Assembly: GCA_020697715.1 (NCBI GenBank)
Contig: JAEHCO010000001.1
Coordinates: 2,222 to 66,221 of the forward strand
Reading direction: 5' to 3'
Length of the DNA stretch: 64,000 nucleotides
DNA from: Methanobacteriota archaeon
GTDB lineage: Archaea; Thermoplasmatota; Thermoplasmata; SG8-5; JAGLSY01
Both the position numbers and the translations under genes were made by a program. The stretch's first letter is position 1. The number at the start of each line of letters is the position of its first letter. The notes beneath the pieces are model-generated. The model ran no database searches, was not told the DNA's origin, and worked only from the letters and a program-made list of their open reading frames with translations. This document shows, in pieces, positions 128 through 51,982 of this stretch.

Positions 128-553
128 TCATTCAATGGTTACTTTGACAAGTCCTTTGCCAGCAACACAATCAATATCTTCATGTGTCTTGATGATCTTC
201 AATTTCCTCTTGGCGTCAAGGCCAGGCGGATAGCATAATAGATAATGTTCACAACCCCTCTCAATACAACTGGCAGTTCCATATGTGACAGTGGAGCCTT
301 CTATCGCCTTCTTCTTGTCCATGATGATATCAAAAGGCAGTTTCTCTATCTCAACTACCTTGACACCATCCTCATGGACAGTGCATTCGTGTTTTACATC
401 CCTTACTCCGACTATCTTGTAATGACTGCCCTTATCAAGATGAAAACATATGTTCTTGACCTTGCATACCTTACATTCAGATAGGGGGCCTAGAAAGATT
501 ATCTCCGTACCCTTCTTTGCCAAATTTACTCCAACTACTGTCAACATACCCAT
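128..553 (-). CDS. Small Cys-rich protein, UPF0179-like
   Basis: 141 aa ORF with paired Cys motifs (CKVCKVKNIC, CIERGCEH); resembles archaeal UPF0179 family from memory; 1-nt overlap with upstream egsA stop. Confidence 0.45.
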   Translation of the reverse strand: MGMLTVVGVNLAKKGTEIIFLGPLSECKVCKVKNICFHLDKGSHYKIVGVRDVKHECTVHEDGVKVVEIEKLPFDIIMDKKKAIEGSTVTYGTASCIERGCEHYLLCYPPGLDAKRKLKIIKTHEDIDCVAGKGLVKVTIE

Positions 554-1632
554 TATATCACCATCGTGGTCTTGGCCAATCTTTCTGCGGCATCTGTGGT
601 CATTCCCTTGTAGCCCAATATGGTGTATCTCTCGGGCTTTATCTCATGGGCTTTGACCAAAGCATTTATCACATCTTCATTCGACAGACCAGCTGCCTTG
701 GCGGTAGTGGGAGCTCCGATTATCCAGAGAGCTTCCTTGATACTCTCCCAATCTCCACCATGAAGATACATCATCATTATGGTTCCCAGTCCACATTGCT
801 CACCATGCAGGGCTGGTTTCTCGCATATCATATCAAGAGCGTGGGAGAACTTATGTTCTGATCCACTTGCTGGTCTTGAGGATCCCGCAATGCTCATTGA
901 TACACCTGAGGATACAAGCCCTTTGACCACGGTCCAGGATGATTCCTCCAAACCTGGCCGTATATGAGATGCATTCTCTATGAGGATCTTGGCCACCATC
1001 TCGGAAAGTGTGGCGGCATAACTACTATAATCTTCATTTCTCAGCCTCTGGGCCAATTTCCAGTCCTTGACCGCTGTGAGGTTGGATATTATATCTCCAC
1101 AACCGGCCGCCAAGAGCCTATGCGGCGATTGTGATATGATACCCGTATCAGCAATGACCCCCAATGGAGTATGGGCGTCAAGTGACTTCTTAACACCATC
1201 CATTGTTATCGAGGCGCGGGATGACACAATGCCATCATGAGAGGCGGCTGTCGGAACACTTAGAAATGGAATTCCAATATTGAAAGAGGCGGCTTTGGCA
1301 ATATCAATTGGCTGTCCTCCTCCCACTCCAAGGGCGAAGCCAGCTTTTCCTTCAGTTGCCAATGAACTAACAGTGTTCACAGTATCGCCATCTGCGGTTT
1401 TTATCGTGACCATATCTATATCAAAGCCAACATCCTCCAGGAGATCCTTCACTTTATCTCCTGCAATGGATCTGGTAGTCTCATCGCATACCAGGATACC
1501 CGAATCTTGCAGGCCGAGGTGTTTACAGACCTCGGGAGCCTCATCAAGAGCATCGTGGCCGACCACGACCTCTCGGGGCAATTCCATTCTTTTACTCTTT
1601 TCAAAACCAGACATGTGCTTCGGAACTGACAA
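553..1632 (-). CDS. egsA: sn-glycerol-1-phosphate dehydrogenase (archaeal lipid backbone synthesis)
   Basis: 359 aa; N-terminal ELPREVVVGHDALDE motif and Gly-rich NAD(P)-binding stretch typical of G1PDH / iron-ADH-like fold. Confidence 0.85.
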   Translation of the reverse strand: MSVPKHMSGFEKSKRMELPREVVVGHDALDEAPEVCKHLGLQDSGILVCDETTRSIAGDKVKDLLEDVGFDIDMVTIKTADGDTVNTVSSLATEGKAGFALGVGGGQPIDIAKAASFNIGIPFLSVPTAASHDGIVSSRASITMDGVKKSLDAHTPLGVIADTGIISQSPHRLLAAGCGDIISNLTAVKDWKLAQRLRNEDYSSYAATLSEMVAKILIENASHIRPGLEESSWTVVKGLVSSGVSMSIAGSSRPASGSEHKFSHALDMICEKPALHGEQCGLGTIMMMYLHGGDWESIKEALWIIGAPTTAKAAGLSNEDVINALVKAHEIKPERYTILGYKGMTTDAAERLAKTTMVI

Positions 1633-1713
1633 AGGTCTTTAAGGATTTATAGTTGTGGACATTGCTTTATAAATAAATGAAGAATGGCTGGGCTATTAAT
1701 TAAGCCCAGCTTA

Positions 1714-2217
1714 TCACTTCAAACCTGCTTTTTTCATCAACATTTGCTTAAGCTCTTCAGGTTTTGTCATCTCCAATCCAAAGAACTCGAAGAACTTTGG
1801 CGTGGTATTGAGCATGATATTACCTTGAGCTCCACGCTCGGCGGTTATCAACCTGTGCTTCTTTAACTCATCAACATGAGGGTTAGCTGGCCGGCCTATC
1901 ATCTCCACCAGGTCCTTCTTCTTCATTGGCTGGTAGTACGCGATGAGTGCGGCTGTTTTTATCACCTCATGGGGAAGCTCACGTTGTGCCACTGTCTCGG
2001 TGGATTCCTTATATTCCTCCCTGAGCTGTAGAACATATTTCGAGCCTATCTTGGCGATCTCAAGACAGGTATTTCGATTCTTGTATGATCGAGAGAGCTT
2101 TTTGAGGGCAGAGCGAACTTGATCCACTTCCAGATCACTGGCTCTCGCTATATCCGGAACCGTCATCAGCTTACCGGAAGAGAATAATATTGCCTCAACG
2201 ACCTCGACTTCTGTCAA
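1714..2217 (-). CDS. scpB: Segregation and condensation protein B
   Basis: 167 aa; N-terminal EAILFSSGKLMTV winged-helix signature; immediately downstream of scpA and smc. Confidence 0.8.
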   Translation of the reverse strand: MTEVEVVEAILFSSGKLMTVPDIARASDLEVDQVRSALKKLSRSYKNRNTCLEIAKIGSKYVLQLREEYKESTETVAQRELPHEVIKTAALIAYYQPMKKKDLVEMIGRPANPHVDELKKHRLITAERGAQGNIMLNTTPKFFEFFGLEMTKPEELKQMLMKKAGLK

Positions 2218-2218
2218 A

Positions 2219-3181
2219 TCACACCACCGCGAGTTCTTCTAGGCTGATGCTTTCATTATCTGTCGACTGTGGCTCGGCAACCAGGCTGTCAATTGATTCT
2301 GAAACATCAATATCCTGTTCCATTCCAATTATTGGAGCAGTGTCCTCGATGTTCTTTATCATTATCTCGCCATAAGGTAATCTTTTCTGGGAAAGAGATA
2401 TCTTCTTCATCTTGGCCAGGAACAGGGATGATACAAAAACACGAACTCGATCCATCGGATCTCCATTCCATACCTGCGTAATTGGAATTGCGTCTTCGTC
2501 ACAATTACATATCCTCTGCCACGTGATGCTGATATTCTCTTCCAGATTTTCCAGGTGAAGGTTATCGGATACACAGAAAGGAACTTCAGGCTCATCAAAA
2601 TGCTTGCCTACCAATTTTCTAAGCTCTATTTCCTGGCGAGCCTCGTCAAAGGCCTCCAAAAGCGACATGAGTGAAACTTGACGTGTGGCTGTATTCCTCA
2701 CAGCCTCTTGGATGAGAGGAGCCTCACATTCCAACACGGTCTGGAAATAACCAGCGCTTGATGGCTCTTCAGGCTGTTCCATAATATCCCAACCATCGAA
2801 ATAATACTCCTCTTGTTCTGGCTTTATATCCGCATCCAGAAGAACTTTATCACTCTGCATCTTGAGAACAGACCAGGCCATGAGAATGAGTCTTCCAGCG
2901 ATTATGAAATTGACATCCTCTTCATTGTTAATTCTCTTCAGATATAATTTGGTGAATTCAGCAAGGTCCAGATCCCAAGGATCGAACTTACTCTCCATCA
3001 CCAATTGGAATGCAATAGCTACTGCTTTTTCAATAGGATCTTCGATCACCACATGCATGCCTTCATCCAATTTATGGAGTAAAGACACATAATTGTCTAT
3101 GTCCAGATCCTCATCATTCTCCTTTATTATTGCCTTGTGAAAAAGCAAATGGTTCAATATATTCTCTGTGTCGTATTTCAT
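2219..3181 (-). CDS. scpA: Segregation and condensation protein A (kleisin)
   Basis: 320 aa; FDPWDLDL motif near N-terminus; 1-nt gap to smc and scpB (operon). Confidence 0.8.
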   Translation of the reverse strand: MKYDTENILNHLLFHKAIIKENDEDLDIDNYVSLLHKLDEGMHVVIEDPIEKAVAIAFQLVMESKFDPWDLDLAEFTKLYLKRINNEEDVNFIIAGRLILMAWSVLKMQSDKVLLDADIKPEQEEYYFDGWDIMEQPEEPSSAGYFQTVLECEAPLIQEAVRNTATRQVSLMSLLEAFDEARQEIELRKLVGKHFDEPEVPFCVSDNLHLENLEENISITWQRICNCDEDAIPITQVWNGDPMDRVRVFVSSLFLAKMKKISLSQKRLPYGEIMIKNIEDTAPIIGMEQDIDVSESIDSLVAEPQSTDNESISLEELAVV

Positions 3182-3182
3182 T

Positions 3183-6100
3183 CTATCCCATCCCGTGTTC
3201 TGTATCTATGATTTCATCATCAATGTCATCCTGGCCAGGTGCATCTATCTGGCCAGTATTGCCCATATCTTTCTCGGCATCCATGCCACCCTTGATGTCC
3301 TTCAGGCTTCCCAGATCGACCTTCATAATAACTTTGGATATTCCATCGTTCTGCATTGTCACCCCTACTAAATTAGAGGCCTCTTTCAATGTCACCTCAC
3401 GAAGTGATATCTGAAGGAATTGCGCCCGCTCGGAATTCCTCTTTATCATCTGCGCGATATTGCGTGCGTTTATGGCATCGAGGTTTTGATCGACCTCATC
3501 AAGAACGTAGAAAGGCGATGGTTGGTATCTCTGAATTGCGAATATGAAGGACATGGAAACCAGACCCTTCTCTCCACCAGAAAGCGCTTCCAATCTATGC
3601 ACTTTCTTTCCCTTGGGTCTGGCCTTTATCTGAAGACCACCCTGGAAAGGATCTGCCATATTCTCTATAAGGAGCTCGGCCTCTCCACCATCCGAAAGAT
3701 CAGCGTACACGTCCTTGAACTTCTCATTTATACCATCGAAGACCTTCAGAAGCCCGGTCTTCTTTTTCTCTTTGAGCTCGCCGACAAGTTTTATCAATCT
3801 CTTTCTCTGGTCTTTCAATCTTTTTACTTCTATTTTGAGCTCTTCATGTCTGGCCTTCTGTTCATCATATGTTTCCAGTGCCAGCATGTTAACACTTCCA
3901 ATGGTCTCCAGTGTCACTTCGGACCTTCTGATTATCTTCTTCAGGGTTTCCATCGATGGTATCTTATCCTTATCTTCGAGCTTGATGTCCTTAACCGCTT
4001 CCTCGATCTCCATCAATCTCTTGGAAGCGTTCTCATACTCGATCCTCAGACCTCGGATAAAGTCCTCCTTGGTCTCCGCTCTGTGATTGAGTTTCTCTAT
4101 CTCGGCCTCGGTCTCCATCTTGGCCTTGTACACTTTGTCTCTTTTGTTCCTTGCTTCGATGAGATCCTTGCCCATGGATTCCTGTAATTTTAATTCAGCT
4201 TTAAGACTTACTTGGAGCTTCTCAACCATTTTGGACTTTGACTTGATATTCTTCTGATTTTCTTCGATCTTATTGTCAAGGTCATCCAATGTGGCCTGTA
4301 TCTCCTTCTTTCTGTCTTGATATAATTTGATCTGTGCTTTTAATGAATCCTTGCCAGCTTCCAGCTCGGATCTGATATTGACATGCTCGGATAATTTGGA
4401 CTGAAGCTCATTCATTTCCTTACCCATCTTCGCAGGCGTGTGTTTGAACAGAGTCTTTTCCATCTCATCTTTCTGAGCCTTCAGGGTCTCCACTTTGTCA
4501 GCCAGGATCATGATCTCGGATTCCACTTTCGTGATATCCTTTTCTAAGGCTATCATTTCCTTTTTCTTTGTATTGATATTATTATCCAGGACCTTGAGAT
4601 TGGTCTGAAGCTCCTTTTTCTTCATATTGAGAACTTCACTTTTACCCAGTGTTCCCCCGGTTGTGGCACCAGCCTCTTTAATATTCTTTTCAAGCTCGAT
4701 CAATTCCAACCTCAGTGAGCTTAATTCCCCACTGATCTTGTCCGCCTCATTTGTGGCCTTTCTCAGCTTCTTGGAAACATCATCCAAGGATTTCTTATCC
4801 ACGCTTCCCACTTTGATCATGGACCTGGACTTCAAGCCACCTATCATGGCTCCAGAAGCCTCGATCAATTCCCCATCTTTTGTCACGATCCTCACACCGC
4901 CCATGATCTCCCTTGCTTCTGCAAGAGAGCCCATGACCACGGTGTCTCCGAACACATATGAGAATACATCTCGATATTTCTCATCGAAATCCACCAGGTC
5001 TAAAGCGAATCCGAGTGATCTCTTGACTGCCAATTGAGCCTTGCCCCTTGGCTTCTGCATCATCATCTTATTGAGTGGAAGGAATGTCGCCCTTCCGATC
5101 TTGTTCTTCTTGAGATAGGATATACATTTCTCCGCCACTGCATCATCCTCGACGACCAGGGCCTGCATCCTTGGCCCTGCGGCCGTGTTTATCGCTGTCT
5201 CGTACTGATCATCCACCTTGACCAGTTCGGCGATAGTTCCATGAATGCCCTTTATGTCACCACGATCCCTTGCCTCCATCATCTTATCAACTGCCGCGGT
5301 GTAACCTCTGGCCACGGACTTGGAGGCCTCATTTTCAGCCTTAAGTTGATTATACTGCCTTGTCAGGGACCTTATGGCATTCTCGAGTTCTACAGCCTGC
5401 TTGGAAAGCTCTGTCTCCCTGTTCTTCTTTTTGAAAAAGCCTTCTTGCAATGCTTTCAATTCCTTGTCCGAGCTCTTTGTGCTGGAATTATGCTCCTTAA
5501 GGCGCCAATCCGTATCCTTGATCTCGAATTTCAGAGCTTTTTTGGTCTCTTCAAGCTCTGCCACTTCCTGCTTGATCCTCTTGTGTTTGTCTATGGCTCG
5601 ATCTTTTTCCAATATCGAACTCTGTACCTGGGAAGAAGCAGTGTCCATCTTGTTCTTCATATCAACTACGTCATCTTGAAGTTTAGAAATATCCGTATCT
5701 GACTTGGAGAGCTTGGACTTGTGCTTTTTCAAAGACTTATCAAGTTCCTTCATCTCACGGTCATTTTCTTTTATTTTGGCCTCAGTGGATCTGAGCTCGG
5801 TATTAAGATCATCAAGCTCTGTGTCGATCTTCTTCATGTCCAGGGCTTTCTTCTTTTTCTCGCTCTTTAGCTCGGGAATTTGTTCTTTAGAGAGCTCCGA
5901 AGAATCATTGCCTCTTGCGATCTCCACGCGTAGCCCATCTATTTTGTTCTTTAATTCCAAGTTCTCTTGTGAGCTCTTCTCAGAGAATTCCTTCTCCAGA
6001 TCATCCAATTCCGTTGTGAGCTTATCAAGTTTTTCTTTGAAAGAGTCCTTCTCGGCTTTTGTCTTGGATATCTCTTCCTCTCTCTTGTTGATCTGCTCTT

Positions 6101-7257: not shown

Positions 7258-7369
7258 GGGCCCATGGCTTAGCCTGGTTATAGCGCCCGGCTGATATGGA
7301 ACAAACCTCAAAAAAGGGTTTGTTCTCTCCGATACCGGGATGTCTCGAGTTCAAATCTCGTTGGGCCCA
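7258..7369 (+). tRNA. tRNA-Ile (anticodon GAU) with 37-nt canonical intron (7297-7333) between positions 37/38
   Basis: GGGCCCA/TGGGCCC acceptor stem, D-arm GCTT…TAGC, anticodon stem CCCGG/CCGGG with loop CTGATA-[intron]-A, T-loop TTCAAAT, discriminator A; intron contains 9-bp helix GAACAAACC/GGTTTGTTC. Confidence 0.75.
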
Positions 7370-40046: not shown

Positions 40047-40493
40047 TTCATTATAAATGCACAAGAGCTCCGAGCAGGCCAATGGGGGTAGGGATTGGCC
40101 AGTGGAGGAGCTGGGTGGGGGGCCGACCCATAGGATGGGGTGGGCAATATTGCAATGTATCAGCAAGGCATCTTATATTCGAACATGCCCCGGGGCGAGT
40201 GTATTTTGTGTTAAATGCACAAAATAATAGTTCGAGAAGCAAAGCGATTCGAACTATGACGCAGACCCGGGGTACTATATTCTATATCTCAGTGAGTGAC
40301 AGTTGCGATGTGCCAGCAAAAAAATATCCTCCTCGCTCTCTCAATGCGAGGAGTCAAATAGAGCCCCGCCAGGAGTTCAACGATGGGCGGGGGCCTTATC
40401 CACACCCAGCTTAGCAAACTTATATCTCTGCAAGGGTGGGCATATTCAATGAATATTCATGGTGGGGGCGGTAAGCGGGCTAAATACCCGAAC
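40047..40493. ncRNA. Candidate structured non-coding RNA region (identity and strand unresolved)
   Basis: No protein-like ORF; G-rich and locally GC-enriched; several perfect hairpins (GGCCAAT-N10-ATTGGCC at 40077-40100, AGTTCGA-N13-TCGAACT, CTCCTCGC-N9-GCGAGGAG, GCCCCGCC…GGCGGGGGC). Confidence 0.3.
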
Positions 40494-41553: not shown

Positions 41554-42183
41554 TTACAATCTCCTGTGATCTTTTGGTGTTTCGCCTATTTGTCTAGCTG
41601 GCACACCTGCCATGATGGCGAAGTCCGGTACATCCTTCGTAACTACCGCGCCAGCTCCAATAACCGTATCCCTGCCGATCTTCACTCCTGGCAGGATCGT
41701 CGTATTGGCTCCTATCCTGGCATGGTCACCGACTCTCGCTCCTATCAAATTGATATCACCGCGACCCATGTACTTGTCATTCGTGAAGCACGCGCGTGGT
41801 CCGATAAAGACATCGTCGCCGATTATCGTGTTCGTTGGAATGTAAACACCTGTCTGGATGGATGTGCGATTCCCGATCTTGCACTGGTCCTCGATGACCG
41901 TGCTGGTACCGATTATAACCTGGTCGCCGATCTCTGTTTCTTCCCTTATGAGAGCGTGATGGCCAGTCTGGCATCTATCACCCATTTTCACATCCGTGTA
42001 GATGATCGTGTAATCCCTTATAACGCAGTTCTCTCCAAGTATCGAGCCGCGGGTCTCATTCTCGCGACCAGATATCATCAGTTCTTTGTCATGCTTTCCT
42101 GGATGGCCGATAACAGCAGTTTCTGCCACATATGTTCCATCACCTAGCTTGGTATCTCCAAGTATCCTTCCCATATTCATCAC
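41554..42183 (-). CDS. Hexapeptide-repeat sugar N-acetyltransferase (WbpD/PglD-like)
   Basis: 209 aa; left-handed beta-helix hexapeptide repeats across most of the protein; 1-nt gap and 4-nt overlap with neighbours. Confidence 0.8.
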   Translation of the reverse strand: MMNMGRILGDTKLGDGTYVAETAVIGHPGKHDKELMISGRENETRGSILGENCVIRDYTIIYTDVKMGDRCQTGHHALIREETEIGDQVIIGTSTVIEDQCKIGNRTSIQTGVYIPTNTIIGDDVFIGPRACFTNDKYMGRGDINLIGARVGDHARIGANTTILPGVKIGRDTVIGAGAVVTKDVPDFAIMAGVPARQIGETPKDHRRL

Positions 42184-43187
42184 TCCAGATCAATTTTCCT
42201 TCCAGTTTTAACGGATTCTATCGCGGCCTGGCAGACCTTGATCGTCTCCAGACCATCCTCACCGGATACGAGCGGTTCTCTCTTGTCCCGAATTGCTTCG
42301 AGGAAATCCACCAGTTCGTTCATGAGAGGTTCTTTCTTTCTTAGTGAAATGTCACGTATATCGAATTCAAGTGGGATATGCGACATATCTGAATTATCAA
42401 AAGCACGTACCTGGGAGGATGATATCCTCGCACTCTGAGTGATATAATCAAGCTCAACAAAGTTCTTCATGCACGTGAGCGAGAGCTTGCGCACTTTCAT
42501 GGGTGTCAACCAATTTATCTCGATGAAGCCAGTTGTACCGTTTTCGAAGTCAAGAAGTATGTTCGCATGATCCTCGAAAACATCATTGGCCTGCTTTCCA
42601 CCAAGTGCATAGACGCTCTTGATCGGGCTGCCGATGAGATAGCGGAGAGCATCGATATCATGAACACCCAGATCCATTACCACTCCCACATCCCGTATCC
42701 TTGCCGGGAAGGAACTAACGCGCCTGGCGGTGATAGTTACCACATCACCGAACTTCTTGGAAGCTATGGCTTCCTTGCCGAACTTCACCACTGGATTATG
42801 CCTCTCGATAAGACCGACCGCGAGGGTGAGGTTCGCATCCCTTGCCGCATTGATCAATGTCTGGGATTCCTCAATAGTGGAGCAGATGGGCTTCTCGATA
42901 AGCACATGCTTTCCAGCCGCGATCGCATCCATCGCGATCTGAAAATGCGTAACTGTCGGAGTCGCTATTGACACCGCTTCGATGTCAGAGGCAAGAAGTT
43001 CATGATAATCCTCATATGCCTTTGCTCCGAACTTTTCCGCAAGCTCACCGGCTGTCTTGAAATCCACATCGGATATTGCATCCAGAACACCAATATCTGA
43101 ATATACCCGGGCGTGGTTTCGACCCATTGAGCCAACACCTATAACTCCTACACTTATCTTACCTTCAAAGCTAGTCATCGCGAGCAC
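42180..43187 (-). CDS. Gfo/Idh/MocA-family NAD-dependent sugar oxidoreductase (WbpB-like)
   Basis: 335 aa; N-terminal Rossmann motif VGVIGVGSMGRNHARVY and EKP motif (LIEKPI). Confidence 0.85.
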   Translation of the reverse strand: MLAMTSFEGKISVGVIGVGSMGRNHARVYSDIGVLDAISDVDFKTAGELAEKFGAKAYEDYHELLASDIEAVSIATPTVTHFQIAMDAIAAGKHVLIEKPICSTIEESQTLINAARDANLTLAVGLIERHNPVVKFGKEAIASKKFGDVVTITARRVSSFPARIRDVGVVMDLGVHDIDALRYLIGSPIKSVYALGGKQANDVFEDHANILLDFENGTTGFIEINWLTPMKVRKLSLTCMKNFVELDYITQSARISSSQVRAFDNSDMSHIPLEFDIRDISLRKKEPLMNELVDFLEAIRDKREPLVSGEDGLETIKVCQAAIESVKTGRKIDLE

Positions 43188-43337
43188 CTAAGATACAATA
43201 GATATAAAGTTTTACCTTTTATGACATAAGATGATAAATGAATAAAAATTATAAGTGGGCTGAGGCGGATCGAGAAAAATACGAAGCTTTTTTCGACATA
43301 GCCTCGGTTCACGATTAAAATCAAAAAGAAAACAAAG

Positions 43338-43479
43338 TGGGCCGAGGCGGATTTGAACCGCCGATCTTCGCCTTGCTGATTGCATGTCAGAAATTTCTGG
43401 CATGCAACTGTAAGGGCGACGTCAGATGGAGTGAAATGTAAGCGAACTTGCCATTTCAAAACCCCTAGACCACCGGCCC
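43338..43479 (-). tRNA. tRNA-Val (anticodon UAC) with two introns: about 34 nt in the D-loop and 35 nt at canonical 37/38
   Basis: Gene-strand 5' GGGCCGGTGGTCTAG…TGACGTCGCC-CTTACA-[GTTGCATGCCAGAAATTTCTGACATGCAATCAGCA]-AGGCGAAGATCGGCGGTTCAAATCCGCCTCGGCCC-A; exons give a canonical 73-nt tRNA; exact D-loop intron boundaries not resolved. Confidence 0.6.
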
Positions 43480-43591
43480 GCGGTATTTCGGGGATTGGCG
43501 AAGTGGTATTTATTTCTGTGGTTTGATATGGTTTTTGTCAAAACCTTTAAAATGATGGTGGATATCACCTTAACATCCACAGCAAGAGTAT

Positions 43592-43724
43592 GCGAGGGTA
43601 GCTAAGCATGGTCAAATTGACCTGCAACCACTGACGAATCAACAGCGTTTGCAATCAAGGCTAACGGCGATAGACTCAAGATCTATTCCTTAGTGGTTCG
43701 CCGGTTCAAATCCGGTCCCTCGCA
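43592..43724 (+). tRNA. tRNA-Leu (anticodon CAA, type II) with about 48-nt non-canonical intron in the D-loop (about 43617-43664)
   Basis: GCGAGGG/CCCTCGC acceptor stem, D-loop AGCATGGTCAAA, intact anticodon arm ATAGA-CTCAAGA-TCTAT, 13-nt variable arm, T-arm GCCGG-TTCAAAT-CCGGT, discriminator A; 6-bp helix GGTCAA/TTGACC spans the exon-intron junction. Confidence 0.6.
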
Positions 43725-43876
43725 CCTTTTTATTTTTTGAGATAGCAGACTGTATTTTACACATACCCAGCAAGAATATGAAGCGAACGAGCAGGGTCAC
43801 CCGAGTTTTCTTTTGCAATGGAATACTTGTTCTTTTGGAGGGTGACCCAGCACAGTGAGCGTAAAAGAAAAGGCTT

Positions 43877-43900
43877 CCGTTTGAATCCGGTCCCTCGCAC
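43877..43900 (+). repeat. Direct repeat of the tRNA-Leu 3' end (20 of 20 nt identical: AATCCGGTCCCTCGCACCTT), att-like remnant
   Basis: Second copy 173 bp downstream of the tRNA; T-arm upstream of the repeat is degenerate, so not a functional tRNA. Confidence 0.5.
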
Positions 43901-43901
43901 C

Positions 43902-44612
43902 TTATTTTACCATATTTTGTATCATCTCAACAAGCCTATCGATGATGACCTCATTGGCTTTTTCTCCGAATTCCTTCGATGCAAGCTGGGGATCTCCCAT
44001 GACACCAGTTGGGAAGTATTTTTCAGGGTGCTTGAGTATCATAAAAGGTGGGAAATTTGGATGATTGGATTCGGCAGTTCCCTTTACCAGATCAGGGCGT
44101 ATGGCCATCACCCGCGAGGTCTCGATCATGCCCGCATGCCCGTCATTGACAGGTATCTCGATCTCGTTCATCGTGTACGCGATATCATAATCCGAAAGTA
44201 CCATCAGATTAATGTCCTCATCATGGGCTTCCAGAACAGTCTCACCTGCAAGCTTCAGCGCGGTCATGTGAGTTCGTCCAGCATGACCGGATAGGACCAC
44301 GATATTCCTGAATCCCATCCTGATCAACTCGGACAGGATGTCCTCCATCATCATCCGCAGAGTTTCGAATCTGAGTGTTATGGTTCCCGGGAAGTTCTTG
44401 GTGCTCGAACACTGTCCGTATTTCAAAATAGGTAACAGATAGGCTCCCAATCGCTCTGAAACTACTTCCGCAACATATTGGGGTTGCAAACAATCGGTGG
44501 ACAGGGGAAGATGTGGCCCATGCTCCTCTATCGCACCCAGTGGTAATATCGCGATAGAGCTCTCATTCACTTTTTCCCTTATCTCTTCAGTGGTCATTTC
44601 CTCCAATAACAT
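43902..44612 (-). CDS. Creatininase-family amidohydrolase (possibly ArfB-like formamide hydrolase)
   Basis: 236 aa; creatininase signature ILPLGAIEEHGPHLPLSTD and metal-binding His/Glu/Asp pattern. Confidence 0.8.
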   Translation of the reverse strand: MLLEEMTTEEIREKVNESSIAILPLGAIEEHGPHLPLSTDCLQPQYVAEVVSERLGAYLLPILKYGQCSSTKNFPGTITLRFETLRMMMEDILSELIRMGFRNIVVLSGHAGRTHMTALKLAGETVLEAHDEDINLMVLSDYDIAYTMNEIEIPVNDGHAGMIETSRVMAIRPDLVKGTAESNHPNFPPFMILKHPEKYFPTGVMGDPQLASKEFGEKANEVIIDRLVEMIQNMVK

Positions 44613-51424: not shown

Positions 51425-51982
51425 ATGGGAGATAAAATAAGGAGTTTCATCGCTGTCGATATAGGCCGCGTTCCTGAGCTCTTGAAATTCGTCAAGGCTT
51501 TGAGAGATATAGATTCAGATCTCAAGTTCGTAAAGCTGGATAACCTTCATATAACCTTGAAATTCTTGGGTGATATCGATGAGGAATTGGTTCCGGAGAT
51601 CGAGAGCTTTATGAGGAAGGCAGTTGAAGGACATGGACCTTTTGAAATGGATCTGAAAGGTACTGGTGTGTTTCCCAATTACAAAAGGATATCAGTGGTA
51701 TGGGCCGGCCTTGAGAAGACAGAGGTCTTGGCCGATATCGCAGATAAGCTGAACAACAACTTGACCATGATGGGGTTCCGTCAGGAAAGAAGGGGATTCT
51801 CACCTCATATCACGATCGCGAGAGTGGGGAACACTCTGGATACGATCGGCTTGCCGGAAACCGTCAAAAAGTTCGAGAACTTGGAGTTCACCACACTTAA
51901 GGTCGAGAGGATCATTTTGAAGAAATCCGAGCTCACACCTAAGGGTCCGATCTACTCGGATGTTGTAACTGTTGAGCTATAA
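51425..51982 (+). CDS. thpR: RNA 2',3'-cyclic phosphodiesterase (2H phosphoesterase, LigT/ThpR)
   Basis: 185 aa; two H-x-T-x motifs (HITLKFLG and HITIARV) at the expected spacing. Confidence 0.8.
   Translation: MGDKIRSFIAVDIGRVPELLKFVKALRDIDSDLKFVKLDNLHITLKFLGDIDEELVPEIESFMRKAVEGHGPFEMDLKGTGVFPNYKRISVVWAGLEKTEVLADIADKLNNNLTMMGFRQERRGFSPHITIARVGNTLDTIGLPETVKKFENLEFTTLKVERIILKKSELTPKGPIYSDVVTVEL

Follow-up and report, generated by a model that had tools for sequence, protein, structure and literature searches.

The 3′ end of a tRNA-Leu(CAA) gene occurs twice in the window (the entire 64-kb stretch of DNA analysed here), and the 155 bp of DNA between the two copies carry most of a strongly conserved hairpin module with relatives behind other genes. 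We lean, a little beyond an even chance, towards the reading that a small non-autonomous module inserted into the tRNA-Leu 3′ end and has since been retained by selection, probably as a structured RNA. Duplicated tRNA ends are a routine marker of integrated elements, and at that level the locus is ordinary; unusual is that the insert is tiny, devoid of an integrase, strongly conserved and apparently structured, and that its family also occurs behind a protein gene, there with what looks like replacement of the gene's 3′ end.

The repeat, AATCCGGTCCCTCGCACCTT, is present in two exact copies in the window, both on the + strand (Table 1) and 175 nt apart from start to start. The original prediction had rightly described a 20-nt direct repeat of the tRNA-Leu 3′ end that recurs downstream, its figure of 173 bp being slightly off. 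The chance expectation for a second copy is 0 and 100 shuffles yielded 0 matches, ruling out a chance origin; a search of the 64 kb that tolerated up to three mismatches returned no further match. Wider similarity around the copies spans 28 nt at 89% identity (43704–43731 and 43879–43906). Identity begins in the T-loop of tRNA-Leu, at position ~58 (AATCC...), and continues past the 3′ end of the gene, such that an intact, seemingly regenerated tRNA-Leu (ending at 43724) is followed by a displaced 20-nt 3′ fragment as a direct repeat, this second copy overlapping the stop codon of a creatininase-family gene (TAA, 43902–43904, − strand). Between the copies lies the inverted pair already spotted in the sequence at the outset, GGGTCACCC (43794–43802) and GGGTGACCC (43840–43848), with 12-nt arms that are 92% complementary.

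Table 1 Features at and around the tRNA-Leu(CAA)/creatininase junction, in window coordinates
Feature	Position	Strand	Remarks
Short second instance of the hairpin motif	40071–40104	+	CGAGCAGG-CCAAT-loop-ATTGG-CCAGTG, 25 nt after the top6A stop codon
tRNA-Val 3′-end direct repeat	43254–43270 and 43336–43352	−	17 nt, AGTGGGC(T/C)GAGGCGGAT; flanks a 65-nt insert (43271–43335)
tRNA-Val(UAC) gene	43337–43479	−	Two ~34-nt introns (D-loop; after the anticodon); divergent from tRNA-Leu
TATA-like box TTTAAAAT	43546–43553	+	Candidate archaeal promoter of tRNA-Leu, from sequence alone
tRNA-Leu 5′ leader ACATCCACAGCAAGAGTATG	43573–43592	+	First copy of a second direct repeat
tRNA-Leu(CAA) gene	43592–43724	+	49-nt D-loop intron (43617–43665), boundaries uncertain by 1–2 nt
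Repeat copy 1	43709–43728	+	Putatively regenerated tRNA-Leu 3′ end; spans T-loop position ~58 through discriminator A (43724), then CCTT
T5-A-T6 tract	43727–43738	+	Likely tRNA-Leu terminator and/or TATA-like box for the downstream module, as read from the sequence
Fast-evolving 5′ spacer of the insert	43729–43778	+	Includes the leader-like repeat (43761–43780)
Conserved core of the inserted module (unit B)	43779–43903	+	Ends in repeat copy 2
Hairpin motif	43788–43859	+	CGAGCAGG, stem (43794–43802), GAG, T-rich loop, GGA, stem (43840–43848), CCAGCACAGTGAG
Repeat copy 2	43884–43903	+	Presumed original tRNA-Leu 3′ end, now displaced; shares bases with the creatininase stop codon
Creatininase-family gene	43902–44612	−	PF02633 in all homologs; anchor for fetching orthologous loci

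The tRNA-Leu gene possesses acceptor, anticodon and T arms, and ARAGORN calls its intron-removed sequence as an 84-nt tRNA-Leu(caa). Run on the whole window, ARAGORN reported no tRNA, and at gathering score Rfam detected in the window only a third tRNA gene (7258–7369, +; 38-nt intron at the canonical position). Both programs missed tRNA-Leu(CAA) because of its 49-nt D-loop intron, Rfam returning a partial tRNA match of 19 bits at this gene, and both missed tRNA-Val(UAC) as well; two of the three tRNA genes found in the window escape standard tRNA finders. Among ~30 related loci, tRNA-Leu orthologs are intron-free or otherwise interrupted, the intron site differing between relatives (D-loop, anticodon stem, T-loop, or none), and the tRNA-Val ortholog at the related locus L036 is intron-free and called by ARAGORN as tRNA-Val(tac). 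The flanking proteins of the window comprise topoisomerase VI A/B, aRF1, ArgRS and creatininase; together with the creatininase homologs they assign it to a Thermoplasmata lineage, uncultured and akin to Proteinoplasmatales SG8-5. The window also encodes a LigT-like 2′-5′ RNA ligase/phosphoesterase (51425–51979, +), possibly relevant to RNA end processing in a host rich in tRNA introns.

Orthologous loci were gathered via creatininase homologs together with a 24-mer from the T arm and acceptor of tRNA-Leu (one genome per species), and they show the site occupied in some relatives and empty in others. In L037, an intron-free tRNA-Leu abuts the creatininase stop with its 3′ end and there is no insert; in L038 and L004 the 3′ end likewise lies against the stop, and the gene carries a 32–33-nt T-loop intron. 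L036 has an insert of ~150 nt, unrelated to that of the window, followed by ..GGTCCCTCGCACCTTATTTT against the creatininase stop. In the closest relative, L026, the tRNA is followed first by an extra unit of 181 nt (unit A), then by unit B (178 nt) and the creatininase gene; CCTT comes after each of the three repeat copies. In both L036 and L026 the distal repeat copy adjoins the creatininase stop. Because relatives have tRNA-Leu's own 3′ end at that very spot, copy 2 is, as far as the compared sequences tell, the ancestral 3′ end of tRNA-Leu, moved 175 nt downstream; with the distal copy at the ancestral position, it is the intervening DNA that varies, and insert differences between close relatives are bounded exactly by the repeats.

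In two further relatives, L003 (6706–7113) and L018, the whole tRNA-Val/tRNA-Leu pair (window 43272–43731) is turned round with respect to the gene on either side, with breakpoints at the tRNA 3′ ends, and the insert is lacking. The other relatives show the gene order of the window to be the ancestral one and that of L003 and L018 the inverted one. Since L003, L018 and L037 have no unit at tRNA-Leu, the unit is dispensable.

More broadly, of 24 other Thermoplasmatota genomes at least 10 carry between one and three tandem units (96–220 nt each) behind tRNA-Leu(CAA). These units end in ..(T)CCGGTCCCTCGCA, and the repeat always starts at T-loop/T-stem positions ~56–63, with a minimal stretch of ~14 nt (TCCGGTCCCTCGCA) common across lineages. 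Many units start with an inverted partial tRNA end (GAGGGAC..GGATTTG), which allows the two ends of a unit to pair, and contain one or two variable hairpins. Units of distant lineages share almost nothing with the window unit except the tRNA-derived ends, so several unrelated insert families are possible. A metagenome scan for the gapped two-copy pattern returned nothing; a scan with TGAATCCGGTCCCTCGCA returned a sole relevant contig, L029, in which a unit follows tRNA-Leu as in the Thermoplasmatota genomes, the other six hits being chance matches in unrelated genes. The same contig contains a 3.6-kb segment (246–3905) bounded by copies of the tRNA-Leu 3′ end, which starts with a truncated L028-type unit and has two ORFs, for proteins of 180 aa and 852 aa (the latter repeat-rich), neither of them integrase-like in the ORF list.

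Comparison with L026 singles out the core of the insert. Window and L026 are identical at 124 of 125 positions of the unit B core (99.2%), as against 77.8% identity in the 5′ spacer (43725–43778), 90.2% in the tRNA-Val/tRNA-Leu spacer, 91.2% in the region upstream of a GFO/Idh/MocA oxidoreductase gene (42180–43187) and 86.9% in the creatininase CDS; tRNA-Leu itself is 100% identical (133/133), its D-loop intron included, and the T5-A-T6 tract is conserved in part. Given 10% neutral divergence, we calculate a probability of ~3e-5 for one change or fewer in 125 nt. On this comparison, the ~125-nt core of unit B evidently evolves under purifying selection.

The inverted pair forms the one helix that is supported by covariation, scored on a hand-checked structure over the family alignment described below. 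Compensatory changes affect five of its nine base pairs, and 97% of cells are paired (4–5 sequences); 0 of 500 shuffles reached this level and the signal collapsed when partners were slid by 1–3 columns. The GA on both sides of the helix is conserved in the same alignment. Folded as a whole, the window insert is no better than shuffled sequence (z = −0.89). In unit folds, the tRNA strand has 32 internal G-U against 3 A-C pairs and the other strand 17 against 7, an asymmetry that weakly favours the tRNA strand. With 675 Watson-Crick against 32 G-U pairs, the helices of the units are near-exclusively Watson-Crick and also compatible with palindromes acting at the DNA level.

A 26-codon ORF, MKRTSRVTRVFFCNGILVLLEGDPAQ, runs across the hairpin (43778–43858, +), and the lone core difference between window and L026 is synonymous in it. 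Unit A of L026 has a 26-codon ORF too, with an RVF..N.IL stretch in common; as this one ends ahead of the 3′ arm of the helix, we judge the ORF unlikely to be coding and its match probably coincidental.

The hairpin has relatives away from tRNA-Leu. An nhmmer search with the core minus its tRNA-derived end recovered homologs in L003 (12095–12190, E=2e-6), L020 and L012. Aligned members share a frame of CGAGCAGG, a 9-bp helix, GAG, a T-rich loop, NGA, the complementary arm and CCAGYGCAGYGAG, or, in general form, CGAGCAGG-stem-GA...GA-stem-CCAGYG; the window has all of CGAGCAGG, the covarying 9-bp helix closed by GA/GA, the T-rich loop and CCAGYG. A covariance model, R1, built on four members including unit B of the window and excluding unit A of L026, matched the window at 43775–43871 with 88 bits (a sequence contained in its seed) and recovered unit A, from outside the seed, at E=5e-9. 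Across the ~290 kb of related sequence covered by the family search, there were 7 matches (in 291 kb).

The L003 member is positioned directly after the stop codon of top6A. On either side of it stands one copy of a 91-nt stretch of the top6A 3′ end, in direct orientation, the two copies being 80% identical with mostly synonymous differences. By its layout, this is the same replace-and-displace geometry as at tRNA-Leu, here at a protein gene. Both L003 copies are equally far from top6A of the window (83% and 82%), a comparison that favours neither direction of duplication. On the + strand of the window, CGAGCAGG outside unit B occurs solely in the short motif instance behind top6A, which has a like architecture, and L003 has a full-length family member at the place orthologous to it (window 40071–40104). 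This short hairpin can be drawn more widely (40066–40112) as AGCTCC-GAGCAGG-CCAAT-loop-ATTGG-CCAGTGGA-GGAGCT, with CGAGCAGG...CCAGYG as its frame, as in the core. In L012, three tandem 5′ halves of the hairpin module (GAGCGAGCAGG every ~61 nt) occupy 2127–2342, with a 3′ arm on the last copy only, which suggests nested or truncated insertions.

These data bear on the original view of the locus as the scar of an excised or decayed element. On such an account, a large integrase-bearing element would have been deleted or imperfectly excised, leaving attL, attR and ~155 bp of non-functional remainder. The repeat geometry and the T-loop start are indeed typical of tRNA-gene integration (PMC4383910), and both the tandem arrays and the 3.6-kb cargo segment of L029 between tRNA-Leu repeats would suit it. 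A decaying scar fits poorly, however, with a core as conserved as the tRNA beside it (against 78–91% in neighbouring non-coding DNA), with a covarying helix and with modules at other genes; nor was any integrase-like ORF seen in the ORF lists of related loci (first residues, without Pfam check), where genes downstream of tRNA-Leu are housekeeping-like by the same lists, and the site occurs in no viral contig. We thus consider a plain scar unlikely, and this part of the original interpretation gives way.

Part of the insert echoes the tRNA-Leu gene itself. The leader (43573–43592), which lies ~20 nt downstream of TTTAAAAT, recurs at 43761–43780 with 85% identity and a spacing of 188, and this leader-like segment starts ~22 nt downstream of the T5-A-T6 tract; unit B opens with ..GCGA and closes with ..TCGCA. 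Had the whole tRNA-Leu gene been duplicated in tandem and one copy decayed, leaving unit B as a pseudo-tRNA with leader, GCGA and 3′ end, these likenesses would be accounted for, as would the resemblance of the family 5′ motif GCGAGCAGG to the tRNA 5′ end GCGAGGG. Yet the ~100 nt in between are unlike the tRNA-Leu body or its intron, the members in L003, L012 and L020 are not beside tRNA-Leu, and 99% conservation is not expected of a pseudogene, making this origin quite improbable.

Insertion into the tRNA 3′ end accommodates these features as follows. A ~175-bp module would have entered tRNA-Leu(CAA) by recombination in the stretch from T-loop to 3′ end, its proximal end bringing the final ~16 nt of the tRNA anew, followed by CCTT; owing to this copy the tRNA-Leu gene would stay intact, and the original end would have been pushed 175 nt downstream, still against the creatininase stop. 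We accept recombination into the tRNA 3′ end as the probable event because the geometry is that published for tRNA-gene integration, in which the target is split and made whole again by incoming sequence, with the displaced fragment left to mark the distal end (PMC4383910). Regenerated tRNA, insert, displaced 3′ fragment, T-loop start, and gain or loss of inserts at the repeats all sustain the integration-type reading that had been proposed initially. Site-specific integration targeted to the tRNA T-loop could have been the route, and a single crossover with a small DNA bearing the segment is an equally good candidate; given that the insert contains no recombinase gene, any recombinase would act in trans.

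The insert would then be a live module and not a decayed remnant. In its fast-evolving ~50-nt 5′ spacer lie a T-rich/TATA-like tract and a segment close to the tRNA-Leu leader, and the core centres on the 9-bp helix, closed by GA/GA and topped by a T-rich loop, between CGAGCAGG and CCAGYGCAGYGAG. The T5-A-T6 tract after the tRNA, the leader-like segment, and the ..GCGA start and ..TCGCA end together suggest an independently transcribed, presumably structured small RNA, with a 3′ end (a tRNA-like acceptor strand plus discriminator A) that tRNA-processing enzymes would cut. T tracts on both strands may in addition terminate the convergent tRNA-Leu and creatininase transcripts, as a bidirectional terminator. 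The original prediction had named, as grounds against its own reading, a second copy that is part of a conserved functional RNA; that the copy belongs to a conserved element has largely been borne out, the element being putatively an RNA.

A parallel exists at tRNA-Val, whose 3′ end is likewise duplicated, the 17-nt direct copies enclosing 65 nt of inserted DNA (Table 1); L026 has no such insert and a single repeat copy. From its arrangement, this appears to be the same phenomenon as at tRNA-Leu. The 65-nt insert resembles the L003 region downstream of tRNA-Val, including the last 15 nt of the longer creatininase gene of L003, so that in the window a creatininase-3′-end-like fragment (43271–43335) sits on the oxidoreductase side of the tRNA pair. 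A simple inversion with staggered breaks was considered as the source of both the tRNA-Leu and the tRNA-Val duplication and was rejected, as it predicts the wrong fragment at each junction (compared by hand with L003).

The tRNA-Leu/creatininase junction exists in three states among relatives: empty (L037), with an insert and duplicated end (window, L026, L036), and with a T-loop intron (L004, L038). It has been proposed that integration of mobile elements creates non-canonical archaeal tRNA introns (Sugahara et al. 2012, PMC3293823). When aligned, the L004 intron matches the 3′ tail of L028-type units significantly (0/2000 shuffles) and unit B weakly (62/2000), a likeness that fits this model as far as sequence goes. 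Tentatively, and with a good deal less assurance than we have in the insertion itself, T-loop introns may be the remains of inserts whose regenerated 3′ end was lost, and the CGAGCAGG module may be a hitherto unreported small RNA or miniature mobile element, one that invades gene 3′ ends and replaces them. If true, this would be direct comparative evidence that small mobile modules give rise to non-canonical archaeal tRNA introns; if confirmed, it would offer a natural series in which the long-standing question of how such introns are acquired becomes tractable.

One could go further and regard the insert as a giant T-loop intron, with read-through transcription and a splicing endonuclease joining the upstream T-loop to copy 2 as an alternative 3′ exon. 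L004 and L038 do carry their 32–33-nt intron at that T-loop position, that of L004 in a canonical bulge-helix-bulge by hand (T stem, TTT, TTCA/TGAA, AAA, CGG/CCG); in the window, TTTGAA, the complement of TTCAAA, directly precedes copy 2, and the intron's likeness to unit tails points the same way. Copy 1, though, already completes tRNA-Leu and the T5-A-T6 tract comes next, and the window junctions form by hand only a degenerate bulge-helix-bulge (a 2-nt bulge plus an internal loop) instead of two 3-nt bulges around a 4-bp helix. No function would be gained by such splicing, its product tRNA being identical. A giant intron therefore strikes us as very improbable.

The original remark that the window lacks an integrase held for the ORFs scanned: no integrase, Cas1, PolB or transposase domain was found at E≤1e-5 in 20 window ORFs of 185–527 aa, neither Phage_integrase nor another recombinase domain, and the ORF list shows no recombinase-type ORF inside the 155-bp insert; an integrase gene within the element, as an autonomous integrative element would have, was not seen. 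IMG/VR viral contigs gave 0 matches to an 18-mer of the site and 0 to the hairpin motif, and neither a free circular form nor a donor element came to light. Over the insert, Rfam 15 returned tRNA matches only, the best non-tRNA match being at 15 bits (E=2.4), and with no covariance-model match near gathering score we rejected the idea that the insert is an RNA family described in Rfam 15. A MITE was rejected as well, the duplications measuring 17–91 nt versus 2–10 bp and the 64 kb holding one full and one short copy where a MITE would have many dispersed ones. If confirmed, the module would be a new small element or RNA for the little-known Thermoplasmata mobilome.

Among known systems, casposons offer a superficial match. 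Methanosarcina casposons target tRNA-Leu with 14-bp duplications and insert in tandem (PMC4779613), and the minimal cross-lineage repeat here is of that length (~14 nt), so a target-site duplication by a Cas1 integrase around a miniature insert might be imagined. The M. mazei duplication, however, extends from CGCA into the DNA beyond the tRNA, on its downstream side (PMC4779613), unlike the window duplication, which lies inside the tRNA; the unit ends show by eye no terminal inverted repeats, and cas1 and polB are absent from the scanned window ORFs, so that we regard a casposon-type origin as scarcely credible.

Closer are Islander-type tRNA-gene islands (tyrosine integrase, T-loop sublocation; PMC4383910), with which the locus shares the regenerated tRNA, the displaced fragment, identity that starts in the T-loop and extends a little beyond the 3′ end, tandem accretion and presence/absence among relatives. 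The non-canonical T-loop tRNA introns are alike in that L004 and L038 have a bulge-helix-bulge intron at the position of the window insert; they differ in that the window tRNA is complete upstream of its insert, which leaves splicing unneeded, and in the degenerate junctions. In contrast to tRNA-gene islands, the insert measures only 155–181 bp, has neither integrase nor cargo, and is conserved and structured, and the module is also found at a protein gene 3′ end with a diverged 91-nt duplication. The cis-mobilizable elements (CIMEs) of Streptococcus are att-flanked, integrase-less derivatives of integrative elements. Flanking repeats resembling attL/attR, the missing recombinase and a tandem arrangement with other units are common to CIMEs and the module; CIMEs, unlike the module, are kilobases long and have a recognisable parent element. 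Finally, REP-like or terminator-type hairpin repeats are likewise short conserved hairpins downstream of genes, in sense orientation and with T tracts, but the module is set apart by its low copy number in the 291 kb covered (7 matches) and by its association with duplicated 3′ ends of target genes; the conserved motifs on its flanks and the GA/GA closure point to a specific fold.
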